Source: a virus
Lineage: Duplodnaviria > Heunggongvirae > Uroviricota > Caudoviricetes
Virus record (IMG/VR): IMGVR_UViG_2917413769_000002
Location: 1 to 41,543 of that record
Direction: 5' to 3' (one strand)
Length of the DNA stretch: 41,543 nt
Positions 7,342-40,700 of this stretch are shown here, in pieces; position 1 is the first letter of the stretch; each line of letters opens with the position of its first letter. The notes below the pieces were generated by a model, which saw only the letters and a list, made by a program, of their open reading frames with translations, had not been told where the DNA came from and searched no databases. A program made the translations under genes and the position numbers.

Positions 7342-9362
7342 TATCCCACCTTCGTCTGGTTGCCGCGCATCACCTGGGCGTTTGATGACTGCTGCCGACG
7401 TTCGACTTCATTACCGACCGCCCGGGCGTCACCACCACCGTAGATGTGATACGTGTTCTGCTGGTTCACCTCTGGCGCTCTGCCATACCCCGGCATGTTG
7501 CTCATCACTTTAGGGATGTAGTTGCGGGTTTCCTGAGGCATGAGGGCCATCCCGTGCTTTTGCACATTCCCTATTCCCCAGTTGTAAGACGCTAACGCCT
7601 TACTCAGGTCGCCGCCGTTCGCCTGAAGTAACTGAGCCAGATATTTCGCAGCAGCCTGCGCTGACTTCTCTGGGTCGAAAACATCGTTCCCGCGTAAGCC
7701 CATGTCGCGCGCGGTGCCATCCATAAACTGAAATAGCCCCTTTGCACCAGCGCCAGATGTTGCGAACTGATTACCGCCAGATTCCGTAATGGCAACGCTT
7801 TTCAGCAGCCCGGCGGGAAGTTGATAAACTGCCTCCAGTCTGTTGAGCATAGGTCCCATCCAGTCAAGGAGAACTTTACCCTGAGCGGTCGCGCGCGGAC
7901 GTTTCACTGACTGTGCGTGCTGTTCCGGTTCGTCGTCTGAAGGCCCTGATTCCCCGCGTAAACGTCTGCCCACACTGCGGGGATCCCACCCCGTTTTATC
8001 TTTAATCCAGTCAGCAACGCTATTAGCGCTATCCTCCACCATCGGAGTGGCGCTCGGCTGTCCGCTGCCTTGGTTAAGTAGCTGCTTGCCAATGCTGGCG
8101 GCCTGCGCCCAGTTCCCGTCTTTAATGGCATTCAGCAGGTCGGCAATCATGTTCAGCATCTTGCCGAACTCGCCCATTTGCGAAATAAAGTTATCGAAAT
8201 CCCATTTCAGGGACCACGATTTCGGGTCTATGCCGAGCAGCTTCGCCAGCGCTTGTGTCAGATCTTTGACGGTCTTTTGCAGGTCGCCAATCATCTTGAC
8301 GGCCTGGTCAACCTCTGGCTTCCACTTCTGCCAGTCAATCAGGCTCTGACCACCTTCCTTCCACGTTTTGTAATCTTCCCACAGCAGCGCTATCCCGGCG
8401 GCCAGCGCCGTAATTAAGCCAATCGGGGACATCCAGAAGGTGCTGTTCAGAATGCGCAGCGCGATGGTCAGCGCGCCGAATAAGGCGATCATCTCACGCG
8501 TCTGTTTATCGAGCGACTTCCACCAGGTAAGAAGATCAGACGTCCCCTCAATCAACCGGAAGAACAGACGACCAATAATATCCCCGAGCGCCAGAATACC
8601 CTTGATGGCTTTCGTCAGGGTCTGCTCGATGCGCGGGAAGTTATCCAGAATGTGGCGGCGCAGCGTGTCCAGCGAACCCGCCAGACCACCAGCAAGATTA
8701 GAGCCGATTTTGTCACGGGCCATGCCTGCCATCGCGCCGAACTCGCGCAGGGAGGTCATGAATTTGTTGGAGCTTCTGGCCGCTTCGTCAGCATTAAAGC
8801 CGATAGCTTTCGCCATTGCGCTGTACTGCCCGGTGAAACCGCCCACACCCCGGCGCATCGCCATGAGGGTATTTTCGTCAATACCCAGCATCTGCGCATA
8901 CTGGTTAGCCCTGTAATACGGCATGCTGCTGAGCTTCTGGCCGACGCCCGTAAAAATAGCGGCCATGTCACGCATGTTACCGCTGGCGTCACGGGTCTGT
9001 ACGCCCAGACGGTTCAGGAAACCTTCCGCTCCGGGGTTATGCCGCATAAACCGGGCGAGGCTTTCCAGAGAGGAACGCGCCGCGTCGACGCTGCCGCCCA
9101 CCTGCGAAACCGCATAGCCAATAGACTGAATCCCCTGAACCGTCGCGCCGGTGCGCTGTGACGCCCAGTAGAGATTATCCAGACCGGAGGCGATCTTAGC
9201 CGTGAAGGCCACCACGGCAAGCGCGGCACCTTCGACAGCCAGCCCCATTTTGATGGCGTTTGCGGTCGTACCGGCGAGAACAGAGTCGAACTTTGACGCG
9301 CCCGCTTCGTCGATATCGAAACCGAGCGAAACAAGGAAATCTTTAATAGTCTCAGCGTTCAT
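7341..9362 (-). CDS. tail tape measure protein with C-terminal lytic transglycosylase (SLT) domain
   Basis: 673-aa ORF rich in Ala/Gly/Met repeats; C-terminal segment ...ESGGNQ...GAKGLFQF...YNWG... carries the catalytic-Glu and AxGLMQ-like motifs of soluble lytic transglycosylases; follows the chaperone gene. Confidence 0.8.
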   Translation of the reverse strand: MNAETIKDFLVSLGFDIDEAGASKFDSVLAGTTANAIKMGLAVEGAALAVVAFTAKIASGLDNLYWASQRTGATVQGIQSIGYAVSQVGGSVDAARSSLESLARFMRHNPGAEGFLNRLGVQTRDASGNMRDMAAIFTGVGQKLSSMPYYRANQYAQMLGIDENTLMAMRRGVGGFTGQYSAMAKAIGFNADEAARSSNKFMTSLREFGAMAGMARDKIGSNLAGGLAGSLDTLRRHILDNFPRIEQTLTKAIKGILALGDIIGRLFFRLIEGTSDLLTWWKSLDKQTREMIALFGALTIALRILNSTFWMSPIGLITALAAGIALLWEDYKTWKEGGQSLIDWQKWKPEVDQAVKMIGDLQKTVKDLTQALAKLLGIDPKSWSLKWDFDNFISQMGEFGKMLNMIADLLNAIKDGNWAQAASIGKQLLNQGSGQPSATPMVEDSANSVADWIKDKTGWDPRSVGRRLRGESGPSDDEPEQHAQSVKRPRATAQGKVLLDWMGPMLNRLEAVYQLPAGLLKSVAITESGGNQFATSGAGAKGLFQFMDGTARDMGLRGNDVFDPEKSAQAAAKYLAQLLQANGGDLSKALASYNWGIGNVQKHGMALMPQETRNYIPKVMSNMPGYGRAPEVNQQNTYHIYGGGDARAVGNEVERRQQSSNAQVMRGNQTKVG

Positions 9363-18961: not shown

Positions 18962-20515
18962 TCACGCTCCGGCCAGTTTGGCCCAATTATCAAGAGAGGA
19001 ATCCATCGGCGCGTAGTTAATCATCACGGCGTCAGCGAGGTTCGGCGATTTTGTGCCTTCCGGCTGTTTATCCACGAGGATTTTACCCACGGCGTTTTTC
19101 GACCATGTAGGCTGTGAAAGCTCCATCAGCAGGCGGTCAATATTTTCTATCTCGCTGCTTATCGAAATGATTTCGTCGGGGTTGTAGTCCATCCCGTTCA
19201 GCGCGCGGAAGGTGTTACGAAACAGCTTACGAAGATGCCACCAGCTCTGTGCTTTCGCGTTCGCGAAGAAGTCTTTATTCAGGCGCGCCGCTTTACCGTT
19301 ATCACCAGGAACGGCTTCATCTTCCGGATCGAATACGCTACCGCTACCACGGAAAGGCGTAGCTGTGATTGTTCCCCGGCCTTCAGCCTGCCTGAGCTCG
19401 TTTATCACGCGAGCATCGCCACGCGCACCAGCACCCAGACCGTCCTCATCGAAACGGAACTCATCCAGACCGTAATCGTCACAGTACCCAAACGATTTAA
19501 CGACAGAGGCGTAGATGTCGCTGCCAATGCCAGACCATTCGTGAACGTTCTGCAGAAGGAAGCCATAGCGGCAAGAAAAACCGTTTTTGTCTTTCCCTTC
19601 GTCTGCAATATCCATTGCGCCGAGGCGCTGGCCGCTGGGCTGAATACCCAGTTTGATATGTGCGTCGACGGCAGCCTGTACCCATTCAGAAGGAATGAGA
19701 ATCCCCTCTGTGGATGCACTGTAGTTCAGGTCCAGTTCCTGAGCAACGATAATCGGATCATCAATTTTCAGACATTCGTTGCGGTACCACTCATCATCCT
19801 TGCGCGGGTCGCTGCGCCAGTGGAACGTAAACACCGGGATATTTCCGCTGTGACGCTTACGGGCAAACGGGTTATTCATGCCGTTGACGGATGAGAGGTC
19901 TATACGGCAGCGGGTCGTCTGAGAGAGCGCAGCATCGATGAGTAATGGCCGTTTGAGGAATGCCGACTCATCCACGAAATAAAGCGTGGTACGGTCACCA
20001 CGGCCAATGTTATCGCCAGCCTCTCCCTTAATGACCGCGCCCGTTTCCGGGAACTCCACGCGCATGTAAGGAGCATGTTTTTTGTCACTCCATGAACCGC
20101 GAAACTCTACCGGCAGCAGCTCGACAAACTTACGCGCTTTCCAGAACAGTGCTTTCGGGTCGCCGGTACTGTCGACATATTCCTCTTTACGGGAACCGAA
20201 CCCGATCACCATTTCTTTGTTGAACAGGCAAAGCGAACAGGCCAGACCGATAGAGGTCCAGCTCAGCCCCATTTCGCGGCTTTTTTCTGTCAGTCCATGC
20301 TCAAGACTGGCGCGCCTGTCCATGATCCAGTTAATCCATTCCTCCTGGCGGGGAAACAGCAAAAACGGGATGGTCGCAGGCAGGCCATAATCGAGGTTGC
20401 GCGGGTCTGTCGTCATGCCCCAGTCGATGATGAACTGGGCCGGGTTAGTGCGGTAAAACTCACGGAGTGCCGGAAGCATTTCAGGCGCTTTCCTGATCCG
20501 CTCCAGCCTCTCCAT
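18962..20515 (-). CDS. terminase large subunit
   Basis: ATPase-like N-terminal region and nuclease-like C-terminal region; start at ATG 20515 preferred because the ORF-track TTG start (20593) lies inside the conserved intergenic element. Confidence 0.8.
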
Positions 20516-20577
20516 TCTCCACTCAAACACGGCGGTATAGTCCGGTTTTCGGAAGTCAAAGGGGAACGGGATCGGCA

Positions 20578-20632
20578 CAGAAAAATTCCTCAAAAACGCC
20601 CCAATTTAACATAATGGTCGTTACCCGCACTG
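20578..20632 (-). repeat. conserved ~55-bp intergenic element, copy 2 (upstream of terL)
   Basis: minus strand GTGCGGGTAACGACCATTATGTTAAAT...ATTTTTC; see copy 1. Confidence 0.6.
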
Positions 20633-20776
20633 GCGCAACAGCACCCATCACGCAAACGGCGTGAAGCCTCTGTTTTGAAGAGAAAAGTGGTCAAATCGGG
20701 ATGAATAAAACGTGCATAAAACGGGTCAAAAAGTGCATAGCGTTTTTACGGTTCGAAACGCCTGTTTTTGCAATTT

Positions 20777-21380
20777 TCAGCCCATGAATTTTTTGTAGAT
20801 ATCTGCGACCTCATGCGGGGACAGGTTCGCCGCGTCGGCTTTGGCTGCCTCGTCCATATTGGTGAACGATTCGAAAATTTTCGGCGCTCCAAGCTCCATA
20901 AGCAGGGTTTCCGGAACCTTTATTCCCTCAGCCTCAAGCAGCTGCGCCGCCTGCAGCGCGGTGTATTTACCATCTACCTTGTGCTTCATCACCTCACGAA
21001 GCACATCACGCTGACGGTCCTCTTCCCCCATAAACACTGCGGCCGAGTCCAAGAGCTTTGGCAAACACCGCAACATCATTGTGCGTTGGTAAAACATCCT
21101 CGACGGTTGTTTTCAGTCCATCAGGGGATTTGGTGACAATCTTTCGCTTCCGAACGTCCAGGCTTTTACCTGCAACGTTGTTAATCTTTTCCATCAGAAC
21201 TTCGCGAGCCTCGGTAAAGGCACGATTAAAGTCGGCGTGTTCCTTGCGCCAGTTGCGGATAGTCGCCTCGTCAATTTCCAGTCGCTGGGCAACCATACGG
21301 TTTGAGATCTTGTTACGGGCCAGAGCCATATCAATAACGATACCGACGTAGGCCTTCTTAAAGCTATTTTTACGGGCCAT
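20777..21380 (-). CDS. terminase small subunit, interrupted by an apparent frameshift (two ORFs 21006-21380 and 20777-21097)
   Basis: N-terminal ORF has HTH-like start MARKNSFKKAY...; C-terminal ORF continues in another frame with 92-nt overlap; G5 run at 21025-21029 (minus strand) is the candidate shift site. Confidence 0.6.
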
Positions 21381-21428: not shown

Positions 21429-21529
21429 TTCCGCATTTTGCGTGCGGAATAATTCTGAGAAAAAATCTGCTCCGGGGCCGCAAGCCTGCTGGGTTTGAGT
21501 GCGGAATTAAAAACGTCAAAAAATGCGGA
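21429..21529. repeat. cluster of TGCGGA(A/G) repeats upstream of terS, downstream of the recombinase gene
   Basis: TTCCGCA (21429-21435) and TGCGGAA (21443-21449) form a 7-bp inverted repeat with 7-nt spacer; further direct copies at 21500-21506 and 21524-21529. Confidence 0.6.
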
Positions 21530-21626
21530 GTTATCAATTTTCCGTAAAAACTGCGATTTTATGCCCGGAGGCCGCGCAGAATGGGGAGATAGTGGATCGC
21601 CCTAATATTTCCACTATGTGGATAAC

Positions 21627-22631
21627 TCAGTCCAAATCCATCTCCACCACTTCACCGAACAGGTGACCGTAAACGTCCATTGTGGTTTTGATGTTCGAAT
21701 GCCCAATAAGTCGGGAAACCTTCAGAATATCGACGCCTTTGTTTGCCAGGCGAGATACAGCAAAGTGGCGAAGATGATGGAATCGCTTAATGCCATAGTC
21801 GTTCAGGGTTCTGACGAGAACGCCCTGAGTGCCGTAACTGGTAGCAAGGCATGCGCCGGTAAACTGATTGCAGATAAGAGGCTCAGAGGAACCCAGCTTA
21901 TTTTTATCCAGCAACGCGAAAAGCTCACGCGGCATCCGTACCCGGCGCTCCACTCCTCTTTTCAGCCCCTCATGTATAACGCCGTCAACAACATGCCCCC
22001 GGATGTCGATCCAGTCGGCTGACACGTCGTTATAAGTAACCGCCAGAGCCTCACCGATACGCAGGCCACAAATCCCGAGCCAGCACGCGATACGCTCACG
22101 AACTGGCGCGTTATTCAGTAGCTCCCTGACCGATGATGATGGCGGTATGGTGATGGGTCGACGCTTCCGGCGCGCTGGACGGTCAACAGGGTTAAAAGTG
22201 ATGAGCCGCTTTTCCACCAGCAGGAAGAAAGCCGAACGAATCCAGCGATGGCAGCCGGTGCGAACCGAATCAACGATATCGCGATGGCTGATATGGAGAA
22301 TATTTTTTTCCAGTATCGGCCCGTCTACAGCGAGAAGATCGTGACGGCATTTCGTATATGACGACAGCCGTATGATATTTTTTTCCAGCTTGCCGGCCTG
22401 ATACCCCAGATAAAACAGAATTAACTTTCGGAAAGTCCAGGAATGGTCTATTCCGGTCCAGCTGGCGGTTCGACAATCCAGCTCAATATTCTGTTTTTGC
22501 CAGAAAAGATGTGCGGCATCATCAATATTCTTAAAGATGCGGCGGCGCCCATGACCGGATTTTTCATCCTTCCAGTGGACGTAATATTTTGATTGTCCAT
22601 TGGCATCAGTGGATTCTTTTATCGAAGCCAT
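21627..22631 (-). CDS. tyrosine site-specific recombinase (integrase family) with arm-binding-like N-terminal domain
   Basis: C-terminal catalytic signature R (LRIGEALA), H-x-x-R (HHLRH) and Tyr (…TTMDVYGHL); N-terminus GQSKYYVHWKDEKSGHGRRRIF resembles AP2-like integrase arm-binding domains; ATG 22631 with GAGGA upstream. Confidence 0.75.
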   Translation of the reverse strand: MASIKESTDANGQSKYYVHWKDEKSGHGRRRIFKNIDDAAHLFWQKQNIELDCRTASWTGIDHSWTFRKLILFYLGYQAGKLEKNIIRLSSYTKCRHDLLAVDGPILEKNILHISHRDIVDSVRTGCHRWIRSAFFLLVEKRLITFNPVDRPARRKRRPITIPPSSSVRELLNNAPVRERIACWLGICGLRIGEALAVTYNDVSADWIDIRGHVVDGVIHEGLKRGVERRVRMPRELFALLDKNKLGSSEPLICNQFTGACLATSYGTQGVLVRTLNDYGIKRFHHLRHFAVSRLANKGVDILKVSRLIGHSNIKTTMDVYGHLFGEVVEMDLD

Positions 22632-22695
22632 ACTGAACAATCCTCACTCAAAAAACATTATCAAAGCCACTCGGTGAATGGCTTTTGTAATGAAT

Positions 22696-22878
22696 TTATC
22701 GGACCAGCGTTACTTTCGTTTTTGTAAACCGGCGCACCAGTCGAGCGGCTTCACGCTGGAGCTCGCCTTCGATCTGAGGAGTAAGTGGCTTACGTGCATA
22801 TTTCCGGCTTATTTCTTCAATCACCTGGTTTATTTGCTCATTACTCGGCGGGATTACTTCGACATTTAAGCGAGCCAT
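22696..22878 (-). CDS. small hypothetical protein (possible recombination directionality factor)
   Basis: 60-aa basic ORF translationally coupled (TGATG) to the upstream membrane protein gene and lying just upstream of the recombinase. Confidence 0.4.
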   Translation of the reverse strand: MARLNVEVIPPSNEQINQVIEEISRKYARKPLTPQIEGELQREAARLVRRFTKTKVTLVR

Positions 22879-23306
22879 CAAGCCACCTCTTTTTCGGTTA
22901 GTTTCTCGACCTTATCACGAGCAAGCGAACAGCACAGGCGCACAAACAATGACGCTATTACGTAGGCTACCGCTGTAAACACCCACCCACCGTATGCAAG
23001 CATGGAAGCCCCCAGCACCAGGCAGAACCATCCCCATACTCTCGCTATTGCGTTCTTGCGCTTAGCAAAGCGTTCAAGGTATTCAATACCCTCCCGCCGG
23101 GACTTATCATCCTTTGAATACTCGACACCAAACGTAATAATGAGAGCTAACAAACCAACTACCGCGCCAAGCAATACGATCACCCAGTAGGCGGCGGCAA
23201 CAACTCTCAATAAAGAACCGGCACCTGTAGTAACAGCAAAAAGCAAAGCGGCGAGCAGCGCGTAAAAAGTTATTTTTGTTGCTGCATCAGTGAAAAATTT
23301 CTTCAT
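22878..23306 (-). CDS. integral membrane protein, ~4 predicted TM helices
   Basis: ATG 23306 with AAGGA upstream; four hydrophobic segments read from the translation; follows the Rz terminator. Confidence 0.5.
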   Translation of the reverse strand: MKKFFTDAATKITFYALLAALLFAVTTGAGSLLRVVAAAYWVIVLLGAVVGLLALIITFGVEYSKDDKSRREGIEYLERFAKRKNAIARVWGWFCLVLGASMLAYGGWVFTAVAYVIASLFVRLCCSLARDKVEKLTEKEVA

Positions 23307-23427: not shown

Positions 23428-23455
23428 AGAAAAAAAGCCCCGCTATTGCGAGGCT
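23428..23455 (-). terminator. intrinsic terminator at end of lysis cassette
   Basis: minus-strand AGCCTCGC-AATA-GCGGGGCT followed by TTTTTTT; overlaps the Rz stop codon. Confidence 0.65.
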
Positions 23456-23994
23456 CTGGTTTTCTCTATTTCACGTATCCCAGCCAGCTGGTTATTCGCT
23501 TTTTCGATAGCGGCCAGCAGCGGCTTGATCCAGAGAACAGCTTGGCAATACGTCAGCGCGCTGGTGGTAGTGGCGCTATCACCGGCTGCGTCAGCGTCCC
23601 CGGAATCGGTGTGCACTGCGCTGGCACGTAAACTGTTCGCGTAGCTGAGCAGCCCACCAGCGACATCAGCAGGAACAGGCAGATCACAGGTTTTTTCACG
23701 GCGGAGGATCTCCCGATATTCGATAACGGTTTTATCGGAGCTGGCATCAATCAGCGAGTTTAGTCGGCTGGCGTTTTCGGCAACCTGGTTAAACCGGTTG
23801 AAGTTGAAAGCCTGAGCAGCGATAACCGTCCCCTGCAGGGCGTTGTCACTGCGCAGAACGCCGTTATCACTCTTCAGCGTAGCTACGTCAGAGCGGCTGT
23901 TTGCCAGCAGGACACACAGCACGGCGACTACTGCAATGACGGCCACCAGCAGTATCAGACGCCATGAGGCTTTGATATCGGCTATGGTGATCAT
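23443..23994 (-). CDS. Rz-like i-spanin
   Basis: 183-aa ORF with N-terminal signal-anchor (ILLVAVIAVVAVLCVLL) and coiled-coil periplasmic domain; follows endolysin; contains the embedded Rz1 frame. Confidence 0.75.
   Translation of the reverse strand: MITIADIKASWRLILLVAVIAVVAVLCVLLANSRSDVATLKSDNGVLRSDNALQGTVIAAQAFNFNRFNQVAENASRLNSLIDASSDKTVIEYREILRREKTCDLPVPADVAGGLLSYANSLRASAVHTDSGDADAAGDSATTTSALTYCQAVLWIKPLLAAIEKANNQLAGIREIEKTRASQ
23553..23699 (-). CDS. Rz1-like o-spanin (outer-membrane lipoprotein), embedded in Rz in +1 frame
   Basis: GTG at 23699 gives MKKPVICLFLLMSLVGC with lipobox LVGC, followed by a Pro-rich mature peptide; fully nested in the Rz gene as in lambda Rz/Rz1. Confidence 0.7.
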   Translation of the reverse strand: MKKPVICLFLLMSLVGCSATRTVYVPAQCTPIPGTLTQPVIAPLPPAR

Positions 23995-24862: not shown

Positions 24863-25477
24863 TTAAATTCTGCGGAAAGCGTACGAAGCGACGCCCTTAC
24901 GCCCTAACTGGCATTCGATTGTGTTTTGCTCTGCGCAGGTGAAGCCCTGCTCTGCAAACCAGCGCCTGATACCTTCATCAGTGAAATACCAGATGTGCTC
25001 GTTCTTTCTGAAATGATGGGAGCGGAGAATGTCTCCGGCATCAGTGAAAATCGGGATCGACACGAAAACGTATTCACTGGCCTGCTGTACCGCCAGCTCC
25101 GGCTCGTCGATGTGTTCCAGTACATCCCACATCGTCAGTGCTCGCCACTTATTGGCGTAGAGATCTGCGAATGCGCCCCGCTCGTTCAGCCAGGCAATAC
25201 CGGCCGGATTAACGTCATACCCAAGCGTTCCCGGTCGGATAGAGACGAACTGACCGGCACCGATACCAACGTCGAGAACAGGGCCGTGAAAATGGCGATC
25301 CACCAGCTCAATACGGGATTGCGTTAAAGCTCTGCCCGTTTCGGTGTCAGCCAGCTGCTGATACTTTGCGAAATACTGCTCGTCATACGGGCGTGATGCC
25401 GGAACGGGGTAACGTCCGATCCCCAGCTCCGGTAAAAATACCAGCCCGCTTTCCAGTTCCTGATAAAACGACTTCAT
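24863..25477 (-). CDS. class I SAM-dependent methyltransferase
   Basis: motif I VLDVGIGAGQF and acidic motif II ...DVLEHIDEPE; ATG 25477 with GAGG upstream; 95-nt overlap with the upstream GT9-like ORF. Confidence 0.7.
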   Translation of the reverse strand: MKSFYQELESGLVFLPELGIGRYPVPASRPYDEQYFAKYQQLADTETGRALTQSRIELVDRHFHGPVLDVGIGAGQFVSIRPGTLGYDVNPAGIAWLNERGAFADLYANKWRALTMWDVLEHIDEPELAVQQASEYVFVSIPIFTDAGDILRSHHFRKNEHIWYFTDEGIRRWFAEQGFTCAEQNTIECQLGRKGVASYAFRRI

Positions 25478-26321
25478 GGAGCCAGGCCTCGAATTTATCG
25501 GAGAAATTTGAAATCCGCTTGTCGCAGTGGTGATCCCATGCTTCACAGCGGCAGTAATTGTCGGGAATTGCCCAGCCAACACGAGAAAGGTCCATCGCCG
25601 GATCGGTTACGATTTCCGGGGCGTTGTGGCCGCCCCGCCCACCAGCAACAACATAGACAGGCGTTCTGTAGGCGATGGCAGCAGGAAGCGCCCAGCCAAC
25701 CGGCGAAACCACTACGGCAGCGTGTTCAATCAGGCGCATCAGCGATTTAAAATTGAGCTGGCCGGAGTGCAGCCGCAGATCCGCTTCGGGAAGTTCGCCG
25801 ACCGCCCACTCTTCCCCCTCCTGCAGGTCAGCCACGCTGATCACACAGAAATGTTTTCGCAGTAACCGGGAGGCCTGCAGCAGATAATCAGGATCAGGGT
25901 TGCGAGAGTCGCTACGCCACTCAGATCGCACTGTTGCCGGGCGGATCACCGCAATCGGCTTTTGGTGGGTAAATTCCGCCGGGCCGAAGGAAGGCAGATC
26001 CAGCGCTGCTGGCTCTACGCCGAACTGCTGGCGCATAGCGTCAAAAATTGAGCCGCGCCGCAGGTGCTGTGGCCCGTAGAAAATGCGCTTTGTCTGGCGC
26101 ATATCCGGTGGCTGCTGGAAAGCGGCTTGCGTCCGGTATTCGTTCTTGCGTTGCGTTCGGAGCGTTGTAAAGCTACGAACGGGCAGAACGGGTAAATCTT
26201 CGTAGATTTCAGGCCAGGCGGTTTTGATGTAACTCCCCGGCGGTAACTGCTTTACGAAAGCCCGCTGGTAGATACTGTCACCCATGCCCAGCATGCCATC
26301 GATAAAAAGAGGAACGTTCAA
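25383..26321 (-). CDS. GT9-family glycosyltransferase-like protein (heptosyltransferase fold)
   Basis: N-terminal ...LFIDGMLGMGDSIYQ... and C-terminal ...VVSPVGWALPAAIAYRTPVYVVAGG... resemble WaaC/WaaF-type heptosyltransferases as recalled; TTG start coupled to upstream stop. Confidence 0.6.
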   Translation of the reverse strand: MNVPLFIDGMLGMGDSIYQRAFVKQLPPGSYIKTAWPEIYEDLPVLPVRSFTTLRTQRKNEYRTQAAFQQPPDMRQTKRIFYGPQHLRRGSIFDAMRQQFGVEPAALDLPSFGPAEFTHQKPIAVIRPATVRSEWRSDSRNPDPDYLLQASRLLRKHFCVISVADLQEGEEWAVGELPEADLRLHSGQLNFKSLMRLIEHAAVVVSPVGWALPAAIAYRTPVYVVAGGRGGHNAPEIVTDPAMDLSRVGWAIPDNYCRCEAWDHHCDKRISNFSDKFEAWLHEVVLSGTGKRAGIFTGAGDRTLPRSGITPV

Positions 26322-26869
26322 AGTGCGACCTCGCGAAGCGCCTCATTGAGGCTGAGCCGCCGGAAGCACTTCAGCGCAGTCTGGCGGCTGCTGTTAATGA
26401 TGTTGACCTTCCCGGCCAGCGCTCTGGCTGTACTGGCGAACTCGCCGCGCCACCGTTCGGCATTTTCTGCCGTTGGGTTATCGAGCCCAACATGATCACC
26501 ATGCCAGTGACTGCCATCAGCGACAGAACAGTCGAACCCGAGCAGAATGATATTTTTCGCGCCCAGGCTGGCGGCGAACAGAATTGATCGCTGACCTGAG
26601 TTGAACGCCCAGCGCGTGTCCGTATCGAAAAGGTGCAGGCCGTAGCGCGTGTGTGCCCGATAATTGCAGGTCCACAGGGCAGCCGAGGGAGGCAGAACGC
26701 CAATATTTGCATCCCACCAGCGAAGATCACCCGCGTAAATGTGCGAGCAACCCGGTACCGCGTGCCAGGACGAATTGACCGCTATGACGGGAAAGCCCGT
26801 GCTGATAGCCGTCTGACAATCGTCGTGAGTGAGGGATGGACCGGAAGCGCAGACGATCGCCGTGTTCAT
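26318..26869 (-). CDS. Rossmann-like putative glycosyltransferase (CstII / DUF115-like)
   Basis: ATG 26869 with GGTGA upstream; N-terminus MNTAIVCASGPSL...VIAVNSSW mirrors the GxGPSL...N motif of CstII-type sialyltransferases (from memory). Confidence 0.45.
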   Translation of the reverse strand: MNTAIVCASGPSLTHDDCQTAISTGFPVIAVNSSWHAVPGCSHIYAGDLRWWDANIGVLPPSAALWTCNYRAHTRYGLHLFDTDTRWAFNSGQRSILFAASLGAKNIILLGFDCSVADGSHWHGDHVGLDNPTAENAERWRGEFASTARALAGKVNIINSSRQTALKCFRRLSLNEALREVAL

Positions 26870-26967
26870 ACGAGAATCACCGTTTGATATTGAGCCGAAT
26901 AGCCCTTGCAATTGGCTCACACACTGAGCCGAATTTCCGAATGGCTGCCGCTGTCACCCGCATGGTG

Positions 26968-34985: not shown

Positions 34986-35344
34986 TGTCCGATGTTAGCC
35001 GTGGCCCAGTATCGACACTTCCCGGACAATTTTCAAATGTTCCAGTTGGCGCAATGTGCGATGAACATCCGGAGAAAAACGCGGTAAGACGAATACAGGG
35101 TGAAACTGATTCAGTTGGCTGTGAATACCACGATATGTGCCAGGAATGCTTAGAGGAACATTTACGCGCATCCCGTGAAGCTGATTATTCAGGTAAATGT
35201 GATTGGTGCAGAAAACATGCCGATCACTTGTACCCTCATCGGGATATCGAGGAGGGGAGCTGCGGACGTGTCTATGAGGTATGCAAACCTTGTATTGAGG
35301 CAGAGCGGCAACGCTGGGAAGAAGAAGATGAACAAGGCTTTTGA
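34985..35344 (+). CDS. Cys-rich putative zinc-binding protein
   Basis: 119-aa ORF with ~10 Cys in CxxC-like pairs (CDEHPEKN..., CQECLEEH, CDWCRKH, CKPCIE). Confidence 0.45.
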   Translation: MSDVSRGPVSTLPGQFSNVPVGAMCDEHPEKNAVRRIQGETDSVGCEYHDMCQECLEEHLRASREADYSGKCDWCRKHADHLYPHRDIEEGSCGRVYEVCKPCIEAERQRWEEEDEQGF

Positions 35345-35474
35345 AATGTGGGTTCGCAAGCGGTACGGAAACCGCTACGACCTGTCGCGAGATTGCGAAG
35401 GTTTCTATTGCCGGGAAGTGGTTAAGCGGATGTTTGATGTGTGGTGCCACTGCCGTGGCCTGAGCGTGGTTTAG
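35328..35474 (+). CDS. small Cys-containing hypothetical protein
   Basis: 48-aa ORF MNKAFEMWVRKRY... from ATG 35328, overlapping the end of the previous gene. Confidence 0.3.
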   Translation: MNKAFEMWVRKRYGNRYDLSRDCEGFYCREVVKRMFDVWCHCRGLSVV

Positions 35475-35484
35475 CGGAGGAAAT

Positions 35485-35667
35485 ATGAGTACAGACTTCA
35501 TGACAGAACAAGAGGTTTCTGAGTTGCTTCAGAAAAAAAGAACAGCTTTATATAACCTCAGAAAAAAACATGGTTTCCCTGAGCCAGTCCTCACCCACCC
35601 AGCGAGATATAGCCGCAAAGCCGTGGAAAACTGGATCAGTGCAGGCGGAGTTAACCGAGCTGTTTAA
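35485..35667 (+). CDS. AlpA / excisionase-family HTH protein
   Basis: 60-aa ORF; position next to and convergent with the integrase. Confidence 0.6.
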   Translation: MSTDFMTEQEVSELLQKKRTALYNLRKKHGFPEPVLTHPARYSRKAVENWISAGGVNRAV

Positions 35668-37015: not shown

Positions 37016-37090
37016 GTCCCCTTAGTTAAATGGATATAACGAGCCCCTCCTAAGGGCTAATTGCAGGTTCGATTCCTGCAGGGGACACCA
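37016..37090 (+). tRNA. argW: tRNA-Arg (anticodon CCU), argW-like
   Basis: 75 nt: 7-bp acceptor stem GTCCCCT/AGGGGAC, T-arm GCAGG-TTCGATT-CCTGC, anticodon loop CTCCTAA, 3' CCA encoded. Confidence 0.9.
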
Positions 37091-37250
37091 TTTATCAGTT
37101 CGCTCCCATCCGTACCAGTCCGCAAAATCCCCTGAATATCAAGCCTTCCGTATATTCACGGTTCGTCATGGTTCGCGTCAGATCGTTGACAGCCGCACAC
37201 CATGACGGGTAAAAAGTGGATAAAATAATTTACCCACCGGATTTTTACCC

Positions 37251-37802
37251 ATGCTCACCGTTAAGCAGATTGAAGCAGCAAAGCCGAAAGAAAAACCATA
37301 CCGCCTTCTCGATGGTAATGGCCTGTACCTTTATGTTCCTGTATCCGGGAAAAAGGTATGGCAGCTTCGCTACAAGATTGACGGTAAGGAGAAAATCCTG
37401 ACCGTCGGAAAATATCCGCTTATGACTTTGCAAGAGGCAAGGGATAAGGCATGGACCGCGAGGAAAGATATCTCGGTTGGCATAGATCCGGTAAAGGCGA
37501 AAAAGGCTTCGTATAACAACAATTCCTTTAGTGCGATTTACAAGGAATGGTACGAGCATAAGAGGCAAGTATGGTCAGTCGGCTATGCGACTGAACTTGC
37601 CAAAATGTTTGACGACGACATTTTACCTATCATCGGCGGTCTTGAAATTCAGGATATTGAGCCGATGCAACTTCTTGAAGTAATCCGCAGATTTGAAGAT
37701 CGCGGTGCAATGGAGCGAGCCAACCTTACTATATCTCGAATAGCACAAAGCCTTGCAATCCAGTGCAAAGCTTTGTGTGTCTCAGTTTTGTCTTACGCTT
37801 AA
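37251..37802 (+). pseudogene. truncated P4-type (IntS-like) integrase, N-terminal ~180 aa only
   Basis: starts 161 nt downstream of the tRNA 3' end in the same orientation; N-terminal KPYRLLDGNGLYLYV...GKK.W block; ends where AT-rich DNA begins. Confidence 0.7.
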
Positions 37803-37822
37803 ACGTATCTTTTTATTTAGAA

Positions 37823-38849
37823 TTATTTGATGCATTTAATTTTAGATTTTCTTTTCAAAATTAAGCCGCATGGAATCTCAATATATTTATAGCTTAAGTA
37901 TGAAGACAGAAGAATAAGTACTATAATTGGTACAACCATCAATAATTTATCTAACATATAGATATCACATAGCTTATTTATTATACATATAATGATCACA
38001 TGCGAAAGATATGTCGAGTATGACCAATCTCCAAGTTTAGATGCAATTCTTGATATAGTGCTATTGCCAATATTGTTTTCAAGACATAAAGCGGAAACAA
38101 TTAAAGCAGCGCAAGGGATTCCAATTTGGAGAAGTCTTTTTGATTCATTGCTAAAAAATATACTTATCAGTGATAATACGGATATTGTTAGTGCAGTTTT
38201 AACACCGATATTTCTGAATAGCCCATTATTATAACATATAGCTATTACCCCCCCCCATAACAAACTCAAACAACAGTTCATCATTATAGAAAAGAAATAC
38301 AGTAGACTCATTATTGCCAAGCCATGAAAACAAATTCATTACAACAAGAGGAATTAGAATACAGCAAATTTTTTTGTTGTTTTCAGGGAATAACAGAGAA
38401 ATAAATACGCACGTATAAAATAGCATTTCAAAATTAAGAGTCCACCCAACCGTTAGGGTTGGAATATACCAACCTATCTGTTGATTCATTACCGGAATAA
38501 AAGCAAGGCTTTTTAATACATTATTTAATCCAATCTCAGCAAACGGAATAACTCCGTGAAAATTGTATGATATTACCACTACCAGCAATGTGTAGAACCA
38601 ATATGCAGGAATAATTCTTACCATCCTATTGAGAGCAAATGACGTAGGTGTAATATTATTTTTCGATATTGACTTATAAATAATAAAGCCACTTATGATA
38701 AAAAACATATCGACACCATTGCCAGCCTTAAGTGCAATAGTGTGCATCAATTTGGATGATGCAGACCATTGAAACATGACTTGAGAAATATGATGATAAA
38801 CAACTGCCCAAGCAGCAAGTGCTCTTAAGATTTGTATTGACTTAATCAC
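37823..38849 (-). pseudogene. acyltransferase-3 family membrane protein (O-antigen acetylase-like), split by a frameshift at a G9 tract
   Basis: ORFs 38229-38849 and 37823-38320 overlap at a C9 run (38247-38255, plus strand); G8 would fuse them into a ~350-aa acyltransferase_3-like protein; strongly AT-rich region. Confidence 0.65.
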
Positions 38850-39478
38850 GGATAAATCCTAATGTTTTTTCATGCATTTTATACTATACCGATCGAAAGT
38901 CCAGTTCTCTTTTCCCATATCATACTATTCGCAATATACGGTGTAAAAATATGATAAACATCAACTTCCTTATTAATGTGTTAATAAACCATTTTTGTTA
39001 AATGCTTTCTATGCCCAATAAGAATCAATACTATAAGTTATAGAACCTTTTATTGTGGCATCAACATTGACATCGCTTTTATGTACAGGATCACAATCAG
39101 GGTTGTTAAATTTGTAAAAATCAATGTAATCATTTCCGCGATCGATGGCTCGCCGTAAACACTTGCCACCCAGTTGTCAAACCAAAAGTTATGGAAATAA
39201 CGCCAGATACTTGGTTTGCGGCTTTGTGCGGTTGGTTTCTCATTCTCATTTAACCTGATTGTTCTGCGAATACGTTCAGTCTTATAATAAACTCTATAGT
39301 AACCAAACTTCCATTTTGATGATATTTAACATCCCTAGCTAAAAGTCCAATACCATTTGTCGAATCACCAAATGTTATCGTAATCTCACCATCAATAGAG
39401 CGTCGTTCTCTTAATGACTCTAGTTGCAAGGCATTCTGAACAGATGTAATTCATGCTGCATAGATATTAGCCGAAGTG

Positions 39479-39733
39479 TTATATACAATAGTTGACCCTG
39501 CCAATAGTTAACCCTGCAGCGTCATCTGTACAGCCAATTAGCGGCATTCCCGTGCCAAATTTACCGCCATTTATGACAATATGATTACCTGGGCCATGTA
39601 TGTAGAAGTTCCATGAATATGATTTCCCCCACGAAAGCATTGGATTATTAAAAGTTACGTAATTATTATCTTTAACAGAAACAATCTGATCCCCCCCATC
39701 TTTTGGTATGCATATATACCCAATAAACATCAA
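39479..39733 (-). CDS. hypothetical protein, possibly a gene remnant
   Basis: 84-aa ORF in AT-rich DNA between the acyltransferase gene and the IS630-family remnant. Confidence 0.25.
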   Translation of the reverse strand: MMFIGYICIPKDGGDQIVSVKDNNYVTFNNPMLSWGKSYSWNFYIHGPGNHIVINGGKFGTGMPLIGCTDDAAGLTIGRVNYCI

Positions 39734-39763
39734 GATGTGGGTGTGAACACCCGAAAGTGATCA

Positions 39764-40700
39764 TTAATTCTGGATGTCAGCCGCTATATCCGGCAGCGTC
39801 TGGTTAAAAAAGACAGATATTGCGTCCCTGAACACTCGCGTACTGCTGAAGTAGCGATTATTCCGCGCATGTTCGTTCATTAATTTCCACATTCTTTCTA
39901 TCGGATTCAGGTTTGGACTGTAAGGGGGAAGGTAATGCAGCCTGATATTTACCACTTCCGCCCAGTCTTTCACTAACTGTGAACGGTGATAACCTGCTCC
40001 ATCCAGAATAACGTGGATTTTCTGGTTATAATCAGGATAAACCTTTCGTATATCATTGAAAAAACGGTATACATTATATTCATTAATGGTTTTATATTCG
40101 CAGATTAGCGGTGACGTCAGTGCTTTCAGATTTAGCGCCCCATGATATTCAGGCGTGTGCGGCTGCCTGTTGTTTTTACTGCTTTTTTCTGGCCTTTGCG
40201 TATCCAGCCATAGCTGATTTTAGTGGCCTGAGTCGGATGGACTCCATCAATAAAAAGAATCGGTTCATCACCCACAGTTGTTTTCAGTTCCACATAATAT
40301 TCAATGAATTGCCTTTGTTTCTCTTCACAGAATTTATGGGGAACGCCTGACGGTTTTTGTAGGTGAAACCATTACAATGCAGCCACTTATTCATCCCCAG
40401 AATGCTGAAAATGATGTTCCATGTCCGGGTGACAAACGCAATAACATCGCGGGTACGGTGAAATAAATTATCGGATAACTGACTGATAAAAAGGGCCATT
40501 TGTTCAGCTCTGAGTTTGCGGCCTGAGCCGCCGTTTTCGGCCTTCAGTTTCCCTTTATTCAGGAATTCACTGATATGGTGATCAATCGTTGTCTAATGTA
40601 GGCGTAAAGCCTGAGCAATCATGGCAGAACTCCAGCCTTCGGAGGCCAGAAGAATAGCTTAAATACGAGCTCTGACTCGCCCGTCACGGCTGGAATCATG
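39764..40700 (-). mobile_element. IS630-family transposase gene, frameshifted
   Basis: C-terminal ORF has the DDE region ...HVILDGAGYH... and the family signature YLPPYSPNLNPIE; upstream parts in other frames (…YGWIRKG…NIMG / ALNL…); two frame breaks at short homopolymers (~40138-40141 and ~40354-40358); element ends not defined. Confidence 0.65.

Follow-up and report, generated by a model that had tools for sequence, protein, structure and literature searches.

Why does a phage that already encodes an integrase carry a second tyrosine recombinase gene next to its packaging genes? The question is raised by a prophage in the window, a term used here for the whole stretch of 41,543 nucleotides (nt) that was analyzed (IMG/VR virus record IMGVR_UViG_2917413769_000002, positions 1 to 41,543). 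The primary integrase of this prophage (36931-35651), which displays Arm-DNA-bind_3 and Phage_integrase domains, is of the P4 type and adjoins a tRNA-Arg(CCT) gene (37016-37090), as an earlier examination of the sequence alone (the sequence-only reading) had proposed. At the opposite end of the prophage, a gene designated rec encodes a tyrosine recombinase of 334 amino acids (aa) and is separated by an intergenic region of 246 nt, housing TCCGCA/TGCGGA repeats, from terS, the gene for the small terminase subunit. Our main finding is that rec very probably belongs to a conserved module comprising rec, the packaging-initiation site (pac), and terS. The components of this module and the adjacent terL gene for the large terminase subunit are the following.

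21627..22631, minus strand: rec, 334-aa tyrosine recombinase, identified by family matches, a structural model, and fold matches
21560..21626, minus strand: conserved non-coding flank of 67 nt with core GATCCACTATCTCCCC, candidate protein-binding DNA
21547..21559, minus strand: 13-mer AAATCGCAGTTTT, boundary between rec-linked and terS-linked sequences, candidate crossover or cleavage site
21430..21537, minus strand: repeat cluster with three direct copies and one inverted copy of TCCGCA, probable TerS (pac) boxes
21529-21524, 21505-21500, and 21448-21443, minus strand: the direct TCCGCA boxes; the inverted copy, TGCGGA, is at 21435-21430
20777..21380, minus strand: terS (PHROG 26539 and weak matches to terS PHROGs), split by a frameshift
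18962..20593, minus strand: terL (PHROG 2, 8e-28)

The linkage between rec and terS was apparent in searches based on either gene. The rec-based set consisted of 13 family loci (one genome per species) and 68 IMG/VR loci, in addition to phage, plasmid, and metagenome records. A terS gene detectable by tblastn was present downstream from rec in 83 of 90 loci of this set, typically at ~245-250 nt from the rec stop codon. One of the seven remaining loci ends at a contig edge. In the other six, which correspond to phiSG1 and to a subgroup with ~44% identity, the downstream gene encodes a helix-turn-helix (HTH) protein whose relationship to TerS is still recognizable (for the subgroup, weak HMM match, E ~1e-5; homologous upstream region). 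The terS-based search of IMG/VR retrieved 79 loci, and rec was located upstream in all 74 loci that had at least 300 nt of upstream sequence; the five others end within 220 nt of terS and are hence uninformative. Rec was found in five of 5,426 complete genomes of E. coli, and terS in exactly these five. The three records of the phage collection that contained terS also contained rec. The outermost members of the family come from marine metagenome contigs, in which the open reading frame (ORF) downstream from rec still matched the TerS profile (6e-12 to 6e-20). The representative lying just past this limit (P0089) is an ordinary integrase, and terS does not adjoin it.

These counts overstate the number of independent events because many loci are closely related; some are duplicates of the same contig, and the prophage boundaries of IMG/VR are predictions. 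The argument rests on the breadth of the contexts. The pairing spans at least four to five terL/portal types (a DUF1073 portal in the window type, Phage_portal_3 combined with Terminase_3, a P22 portal combined with Terminase_6, DUF4055 likewise combined with Terminase_6, and one type without a Pfam match). It was found in prophages that have a separate integrase (the window and EKP1) and in 28 phage-plasmids from Arsenophonus, Yersinia pestis, Erwinia, Providencia, and Sodalis. The divergence of rec runs in step with that of the packaging genes. No presence/absence polymorphism of rec was detected among close relatives, whereas the adjacent slot, described below, varies freely.

Two divergent branches of the family displayed additional arrangements. 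The 52-kb extrachromosomal phage phiSG1 of Sodalis (L092, L251) carries two complete lysis-rec-terS modules, one P22-like and the other similar to that of the Y. pestis plasmid, which suggests that phiSG1 is a composite of two phages. In the relatives with ~44% identity (L009/L010, L024, L155-L157), a cassette encoding a 194-aa protein, Rec, and an HTH protein of 174 or 180 aa occurs in three contexts; the HTH protein distantly resembles the N-terminal domain of TerS. One of these contexts is located amid baseplate and tail-fiber genes, in a ~15-kb element that has an integrase and a primase gene, lies beside smpB, and may be satellite-like. Locus L155 (IMG/VR, 7,742 nt) has ends that overlap by 21 nt, is circularly permuted relative to L009/L156, and holds just baseplate/fiber genes and rec; it is either an assembly artifact or a small circular form.

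The gene downstream from rec gave weak matches to terS PHROGs and to Pfam Sf6_terminase, and terL was always adjacent. The N-terminal ~160 residues of its product are conserved while the C-terminal tail switches with the terL type, as expected of a true small terminase. The hexamers of the repeat cluster covaried with the recognition helix of TerS. Helix IDEATIRNW was paired with TCCGCA in 22 of 23 unique loci, VDETTIRRW with GCCGCA in 40 of 41, and VDEITIRRW with GTCGCA in both loci in which it was found, these two loci differing in rec type. Identical N-terminal domains of Rec were associated with TCCGCA boxes and with GCCGCA boxes. Because the hexamer follows the TerS helix and not rec, we read the TGCGGA/TCCGCA cluster as probably being the TerS-binding part of pac; the covariation also eliminated the repeats as arm sites for Rec. 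These pairings, of Asn with T, Arg with G, and Ile with T, resemble a direct recognition code. The usual layout of the intergenic region in the family is three direct boxes, to which an inverted fourth is often added. Plasmids of Arsenophonus and Providencia have the same three-box layout with hexamers of their own, and each intergenic region of phiSG1 has two direct boxes. Two loci (L144, 11200-11577, and L153, 11275-11604) contain an extra ORF of ~110 aa between rec and full-length terS, encoding a paralogue limited to the HTH domain of TerS.

The product of rec matched the Pfam family Phage_integrase (PF00589; 2.3e-15, 57 bits for a cut-off of 27) and the PHROG integrase profile (2e-30). 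Translation starts at ATG 22631 (MASIKE..., preceded by the Shine-Dalgarno sequence GAGGA) rather than at TTG 22640. Residues R190, K223, H284, R287, H310, and Y320 were invariant in an alignment of 26 members with 35-80% identity. The same catalytic residues were kept in members with 25-40% identity, including both copies of phiSG1. The dN/dS ratio was 0.07-0.14 for pairs from the main clade. Rec appears to be active, with an intact catalytic set and a dN/dS of ~0.1 that points to purifying selection.

The AlphaFold model of Rec (mean pLDDT of 88.8) comprises an N-terminal domain made of three strands (residues 2-7, 13-20, and 27-32) and a helix (residues 35-51), followed by a helical core-binding domain and a catalytic domain. 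The top ranks of a Foldseek search with this model were occupied by Tn1549 Int and full-length lambda Int, Cre being far below Int and Xer lower too; sequence identity to the lambda Int and Tn1549-Tn916 Int matches was 13-20%. Rec is therefore modeled as having the heterobivalent three-domain build of the lambda Int/Tn916 type with an arm-type N-terminal domain, in support of the arm-binding N terminus proposed previously. Assignment of Rec to Cre-type simple recombinases was not retained owing to this predicted domain and to the low rank of Cre in the fold search. The scores of Rec against the equivalog profiles of Xer (XerC/D/A) were 26-42 bits for cut-offs of 220-335, and the score against the integron-integrase profile TIGR02249 (NCBIfam) was 36 bits for a cut-off of 265. 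All sequence-profile matches were to generic integrases. Among 1.84 billion cluster representatives, just 25 matched Rec at E ≤ 1e-30, beyond which a plateau of generic integrases was reached; this small number indicates that Rec and its relatives form a small, distinct subfamily.

The flank that follows the rec stop codon was exactly 67 nt in 60 unique loci, with a mean p-distance of 0.096 versus 0.14-0.21 for the rec coding sequence. The 13-mer was present in 68 of 74 unique loci, and a variant, AAATCACAG, was recognizable in the Arsenophonus plasmids. Neither element had a second copy in the window or in EKP1, whose genome is complete. Distance matrices were correlated at 0.79-0.99 among windows of rec and the flank (0.79-0.93 for the flank versus rec). 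Across the 13-mer, the correlation between rec or the flank and the region preceding terS or the 5' end of terS was just 0.09-0.31. Of 461 pairs with identical left sides and divergent right sides, 321 start to diverge at the base immediately following the 13-mer. All combinations of rec type and box type occurred. Since the correlations break and divergence starts at this position, rec with its flank and the boxes with terS form two blocks that reassort at or near the 13-mer.

Other interpretations of this region were considered. The flank and the 13-mer were rejected as a terminator or structured RNA since their fold was no better than that of shuffled sequences (z = -0.5) and no Rfam family was matched. 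A 16-mer scan of IMG/VR for hybrid junctions returned 62 matches, of which 55 were known canonical copies; six of the seven new contigs were chance matches. The seventh (L264) was rejected as a site-specific junction, being an illegitimate truncation or deletion endpoint inside rec. At positions 8300-8730 of this contig, baseplate genes give way to the final 13 nt of rec, after which come the flank, a variant of the 13-mer, the boxes, and a truncated terS.

The DNA on the other side of rec behaves differently. In the order of transcription, the locus consists of genes for holin, lysozyme, and Rz/Rz1, a hairpin, genes for a 142-aa and a 60-aa protein, a second hairpin, rec, the repeats, terS, and terL. 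The features upstream from rec are the following.

24819-24499, minus strand: holin
24521-23991, minus strand: lysozyme (Pfam Phage_lysozyme, 8.6e-29)
23994-23443, minus strand: Rz with embedded Rz1
23434..23457, minus strand: hairpin and T-run resembling an intrinsic terminator, just past the Rz stop codon; 10 pairs, of which 6 are G-C
22878..23306, minus strand: 142-aa membrane protein, ATG at 23306, ~4 hydrophobic stretches, pI 9.5
22696..22878, minus strand: 60-aa basic protein, pI 10.5, with a TGATG stop/start overlap with the membrane-protein gene
22650..22692, minus strand: conserved hairpin and T-run directly upstream from rec, from a terminator scan; RNA fold z = -3.5

All features described in the sequence-only reading were thus recovered on the minus strand, namely the membrane protein, the coupled 60-aa protein, the recombinase, the repeat cluster, and the terminator of the lysis genes. 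The proposal that the first three form a three-gene unit did not withstand comparison with relatives. In blastn alignments with ~85 related loci, homology ended at ~23462, at the end of Rz, and restarted at 22692, just past the stop codon of the 60-aa gene. The slot delimited in this way is empty (38 nt) in 13 loci. Elsewhere it contains 367, 390, 461-464, 498, 564, 578, 711, 778, or 839 nt of unrelated content, such as a DUF6236 gene in an E. coli prophage. Homologues of the membrane-protein gene were found in 10 of ~95 related loci, as were homologues of the 60-aa gene. Either gene was present in 12 of these loci, and four of the 12 had one of the two alone; the 60-aa gene was found without its partner in EKP1 and L143. 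The two genes are unlinked from rec in relatives, and we regard them on these comparative grounds as cargo of a hypervariable moron slot that is separate from the rec module. They display the features of morons, with presence/absence polymorphism between conserved neighbors and terminator-like hairpins at both edges of the slot (23434..23457 on the left and 22650..22692 on the right). A simple scan detected no promoter of their own. The membrane protein gave weak family matches (NCBIfam NF038378, 2e-9, under the cut-off, and PHROG 162), and the 60-aa protein belongs to PHROG 12811 (1.4e-28), which has no assigned function. No PADLOC defence-system model was matched by Rec, by TerS, by the two cargo proteins of the window, or by the alternative cargo DUF6236.

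The hairpin between the slot and rec is the only palindrome that could be considered as a lox-like site. It was rejected since it varies among loci in which rec is 99% identical. Its arms display compensatory changes in such loci (AAAGCCA/TGGCTTT versus GAAGCCC/GGGCTTC) and it folds well (z = -3.5), making it likelier to be a terminator than a site for Rec. The locus resembles an integron in having a recombinase gene beside a hypervariable slot of small promoterless genes. It differs by the absence of a repeated attC-like site and by the common orientation of cargo and rec inside a late operon. Integron-like capture was rejected as no repeated attC-like site was found at the slot boundaries and the hairpin is single and varies independently of rec.

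What, then, might Rec do beside pac? We favor the possibility, to which we assign a probability of roughly 0.4, that Rec is expressed late and acts on copies of the phage DNA at a site adjacent to pac, thereby interconverting monomers and multimers. This reading is preferred because an intact Int-type enzyme is combined with one conserved site per genome located 24 nt from the first TerS box. In the proposed mechanism, rec, the 67-nt flank, the 13-mer, the three TerS boxes, and terS would constitute, in this order, a packaging-initiation module. Rec would be made together with terminase from a Q-antiterminated late unit and would act in cis on its own flank and 13-mer, beside the TerS-bound pac boxes. 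Site-specific recombination between genome copies, of the attP × attP type, would interconvert monomers and head-to-tail multimers as headful packaging begins. TerS may assist as an accessory factor similar to Xis or Cox, the rec locus being reminiscent of Xis/Cox boxes in that an HTH protein is associated with direct repeats next to a putative core. Reassortment of the left (early, lysis, and rec) and right (terS and structural) halves of related phages would be a by-product.

The timing is suggested by gene order. The rec gene is downstream from the gene for the Q antiterminator (Pfam PF06530; 27291-27711), shares its strand with the lysis and structural genes, and lies between terminator-like hairpins. 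A simple promoter scan detected no sigma-70-like promoter for rec on that strand. We infer from the upstream position of Q, the surrounding hairpins, and this negative scan that rec is expressed late, with terminase. A scan of 10 early-region ORFs detected no general recombinase of the phage, which is a weak negative.

Several observations weigh against late recombination of genome copies at pac. The most distant members of the family (Y. pestis and phiSG1) lack the 13-mer, whose dyad symmetry is weak. Apart from the TerS boxes, the sole candidates for arm-type repeats retrieved by a search were dyads that are short and poorly conserved (ATAGTGGA/TCCACTAT and GAGTTATC/GATAACTC, for example), none of which was convincing. 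No direct sequence footprint of recombination by Rec was detected. The reassortment boundary could equally stem from recombinogenic ends generated by terminase cleavage at pac or from selection acting on modules; it is no proof of the action of Rec, since ends cut by terminase at pac are recombinogenic too. Many of the discordant pairs reflect just a few independent events. Late expression is deduced from gene order and a simple promoter scan, and we infer both the identity of the target site and the biological purpose of Rec. Multimerization by a reversible site-specific reaction would also be an inefficient route to substrates for headful packaging. Finally, Yersinia phage YP3 (PV092592) carries one copy of terS without rec. 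The YP3 record appears chimeric and is for this reason not relied on as a natural variant lacking rec or terS. At 19600-19770 of this record (L005), rec is followed by the first 8 nt of the 13-mer fused to the start codon of terL, without terS. A second flank is found at 35100-35500 with the 13-mer, the boxes, and terS (near 35.4 kb), without rec and with a duplicated box segment.

Rec could alternatively be a catalytic or architectural cofactor of packaging that binds the flank and 13-mer and shapes, nicks, or relaxes the DNA, in a topoisomerase-like manner, for TerS and TerL at pac. Its part would be analogous to that of the HNH endonucleases of HK97-like phages, described further below. This would account for an obligate and reciprocal linkage that holds regardless of terL type and lifestyle, for a conserved flank resembling protein-binding DNA at a fixed distance from the TerS boxes, and for the fact that lysogeny functions are already served by a separate integrase or resolvase. 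We nevertheless consider a cofactor role rather unlikely. TerL proteins bear their own nuclease, the retained three-domain build of lambda Int suggests true synapsis and strand exchange, and we know of no precedent for a tyrosine recombinase in terminase function. The alleles of rec and terS also reassort freely, arguing against tight co-adaptation between the two proteins by direct contact. The same free reassortment, with its sharp boundary at the 13-mer and every combination of rec type and box type, would be expected if rec were a selfish passenger persisting by linkage, or by spreading and reshuffling the rec-terS region, without any gain to the phage. Occurrence in three contexts of the cassette encoding the 194-aa protein, Rec, and the HTH protein would also fit. 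The passenger hypothesis is unlikely in view of the dN/dS of ~0.1, the invariant catalytic residues, and the retention of rec down to ~25% identity in very mosaic genomes; moreover, rec displays no presence/absence polymorphism in close relatives in which the neighboring slot is freely variable.

Three further explanations attribute to Rec a function already known for recombinases. The sequence-only reading had envisaged a resolution or circularization system at the packaging site by analogy with Cre/loxP of phage P1. The tie to the packaging site was borne out, rec being the conserved partner of terS and pac, but the analogy fits poorly. Housekeeping of this kind, in which Rec would cyclize terminally redundant injected DNA or resolve plasmid or replication dimers near pac, is compatible with one site per genome beside pac, with the frequency of the module in phage-plasmids, and with the failure to detect a general recombinase in the early region. 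It is quite unlikely for several reasons. A serine resolvase gene was found beside terL in five of the five plasmid regions inspected (Y. pestis, Arsenophonus, Providencia, and both modules of phiSG1) and integrated prophages do not need dimer resolution, so that resolution of plasmid dimers is unlikely to be the main role. The serine resolvase (~200 aa) is encoded between terL and the portal gene or between terS and terL (L006-L008, L251, L252, L253). Furthermore, the scan revealed no promoter from which rec could be expressed early or constitutively, a terminator lies directly upstream, and the architecture of Rec is similar to that of Int rather than Cre. The site, being upstream from terS, would also fall outside the terminal redundancy if packaging proceeds in the usual direction from terS to terL. 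Use of Rec as a back-up integrase, with its own attP beside pac and a second chromosomal target for the phage or phage-plasmid, would agree with the lambda-Int-type architecture, the arm-type domain, and the attP-like size of the intergenic region (~245 bp). This is very unlikely since lysis genes, rec, and terS were contiguous in all of the ~100 loci, including genomes, prophage predictions, and plasmids, indicating that the site was never used for integration. In addition, rec belongs to a late unit, and an attB search of 5,426 E. coli genomes with the intergenic region matched the same prophages and revealed no chromosomal homologue.

Least credible of all is that rec is part of a nested mini-integrative element, a satellite remnant, or an invertase switch, as also suggested in the sequence-only reading on seeing a second recombinase gene in the prophage, adjoined by DNA that we now know to be variable. 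A search for direct repeats flanking 21.4-23.4 kb and for inverted repeats anywhere in the window retrieved chance-level matches only. A nested element was rejected since only the cargo slot varies among relatives, with boundaries of its own, and rec is never missing as a block in close relatives; its position is conserved at every level of divergence. A DNA invertase or shufflon recombinase of the FimB/E or Rci type was discarded in the absence of credible inverted repeats, of inverted-orientation alignments among the ~85 related loci aligned by blastn, and of a second site, the cis elements being single-copy in the window and in EKP1.

No description of a pairing between a tyrosine recombinase and terS was found in full-text literature searches, in agreement with the earlier statement that the arrangement was not recognized as a described system. 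The closest known systems are lambda Int and Tn1549 Int by fold, P1 Cre/loxP by position, and the second integrase of a phage of the Bacillus cereus group by situation. Rec shares with lambda Int and Tn1549-Tn916 Int, its best fold matches, three domains and the full catalytic set. Unlike these enzymes, Rec was never seen integrating, the repeats at its locus track TerS, and its gene is in the late operon by terS rather than in a lysogeny module. In phage P1, which lives as a plasmid, Cre/loxP adjoins pacA/pacB and acts on copies of phage DNA at a single target site. Cre has no arm-binding domain, recognizes a 13-8-13 palindrome (a site of ~34 bp), is expressed from its own promoters, and is not known to be linked gene for gene to a terminase family. 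The rec locus is similar to that of P1 in that a tyrosine recombinase is encoded near the packaging site of plasmid-capable phages. It differs by the lambda-Int-like architecture of Rec, by the failure to find a lox-like palindrome tracking rec, and by the serine resolvase of the plasmid regions inspected. HK97-like phages have HNH endonuclease genes next to their terminase genes, and these endonucleases assist cos cleavage. They are comparable to Rec as accessory DNA enzymes whose conserved place beside terS/terL points to packaging; they belong to another enzyme class and to cos packaging. Phage phIS3501 of the B. cereus group encodes an extra tyrosine recombinase (p22) between late regulators and terminase genes, whose role was described as unclear by the authors (PMC3335513). 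As for rec, an unexplained recombinase gene lies upstream from the packaging genes of a temperate phage; the phIS3501 gene differs in belonging to a cos-packaging phage of Gram-positive hosts, and the likeness is one of gene position, not of established homology. The reciprocal and family-wide linkage of an ordinary tyrosine recombinase to a small-terminase family is absent from the known systems that we compared.

The copy of the module in the window may not be functional. The terS gene carries an additional G in a G-run at ~21029, resulting in ORFs of 124 and 106 aa, whereas it is intact in relatives L108 and L104 (200 aa). The Q gene is also frameshifted, profile positions 1-68 and 71-118 being matched by overlapping ORFs in different frames. 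The two frameshifts could mean that the prophage is defective, in packaging as far as terS is concerned, or they could reflect homopolymer errors of sequencing. The true start of terL is probably a GTG at ~20578, preceded by the Shine-Dalgarno sequence GAGGAA, rather than the upstream TTG, and the terS-terL intergenic region contains two direct repeats, TATGCAC(T/G)TTTT, at 20700-20745. Between Q and the holin gene (24863-26920), three genes that are kept in the E. coli relatives encode a methyltransferase (PHROG 6564), a 312-aa protein with a function-less match (PHROG 6804), and a 200-aa protein of PHROG 4603, annotated in PHROGs as sialyltransferase-like; they may form a DNA- or surface-modification module of the late operon. 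The prophage integrase gene flanks the tRNA-Arg gene on its 5' side, and the DNA to the right of the latter (37200-40000) forms an AT-rich island with a GC content of 33-42%. A search inside the window for an att repeat matching the tRNA region was negative, and the window opens with a DinI-like ORF (1-249), so that the far end of the prophage lies outside the window.

The significance of these results depends on the function of Rec. If rec is a mere passenger, the finding is an ordinary one, that of a moron slot and an extra integrase-like gene. Annotation pipelines label rec as an integrase, which can mislead the assignment of lifestyles, the delineation of prophage boundaries, and the tallying of integrases in each phage. 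A part of Rec in packaging, if real, would represent a new enzyme class in phage DNA maturation, could explain the supply of packageable DNA in some headful phages and phage-plasmids, and would provide a mechanistic basis for one sharp module boundary of mosaic phage genomes. A bolder generalization, which we put forward tentatively and consider doubtful, is that a lambda-Int-type recombinase is an integral, hitherto overlooked component of the initiation of headful packaging for the whole terS family, with a site abutting the TerS boxes, and that it is required for making or maturing the DNA substrate, for example by TerS-assisted attP × attP multimerization or by site-specific nicking at pac. 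Such a role would extend from the elements of enteric bacteria to those of marine ones and would concern temperate phages as well as phage-plasmids and satellite-like elements. The covariation between the boxes and the TerS helix offers a directly testable code for the recognition of pac by TerS, with a possible use in predicting or re-engineering the specificity of packaging and transduction.

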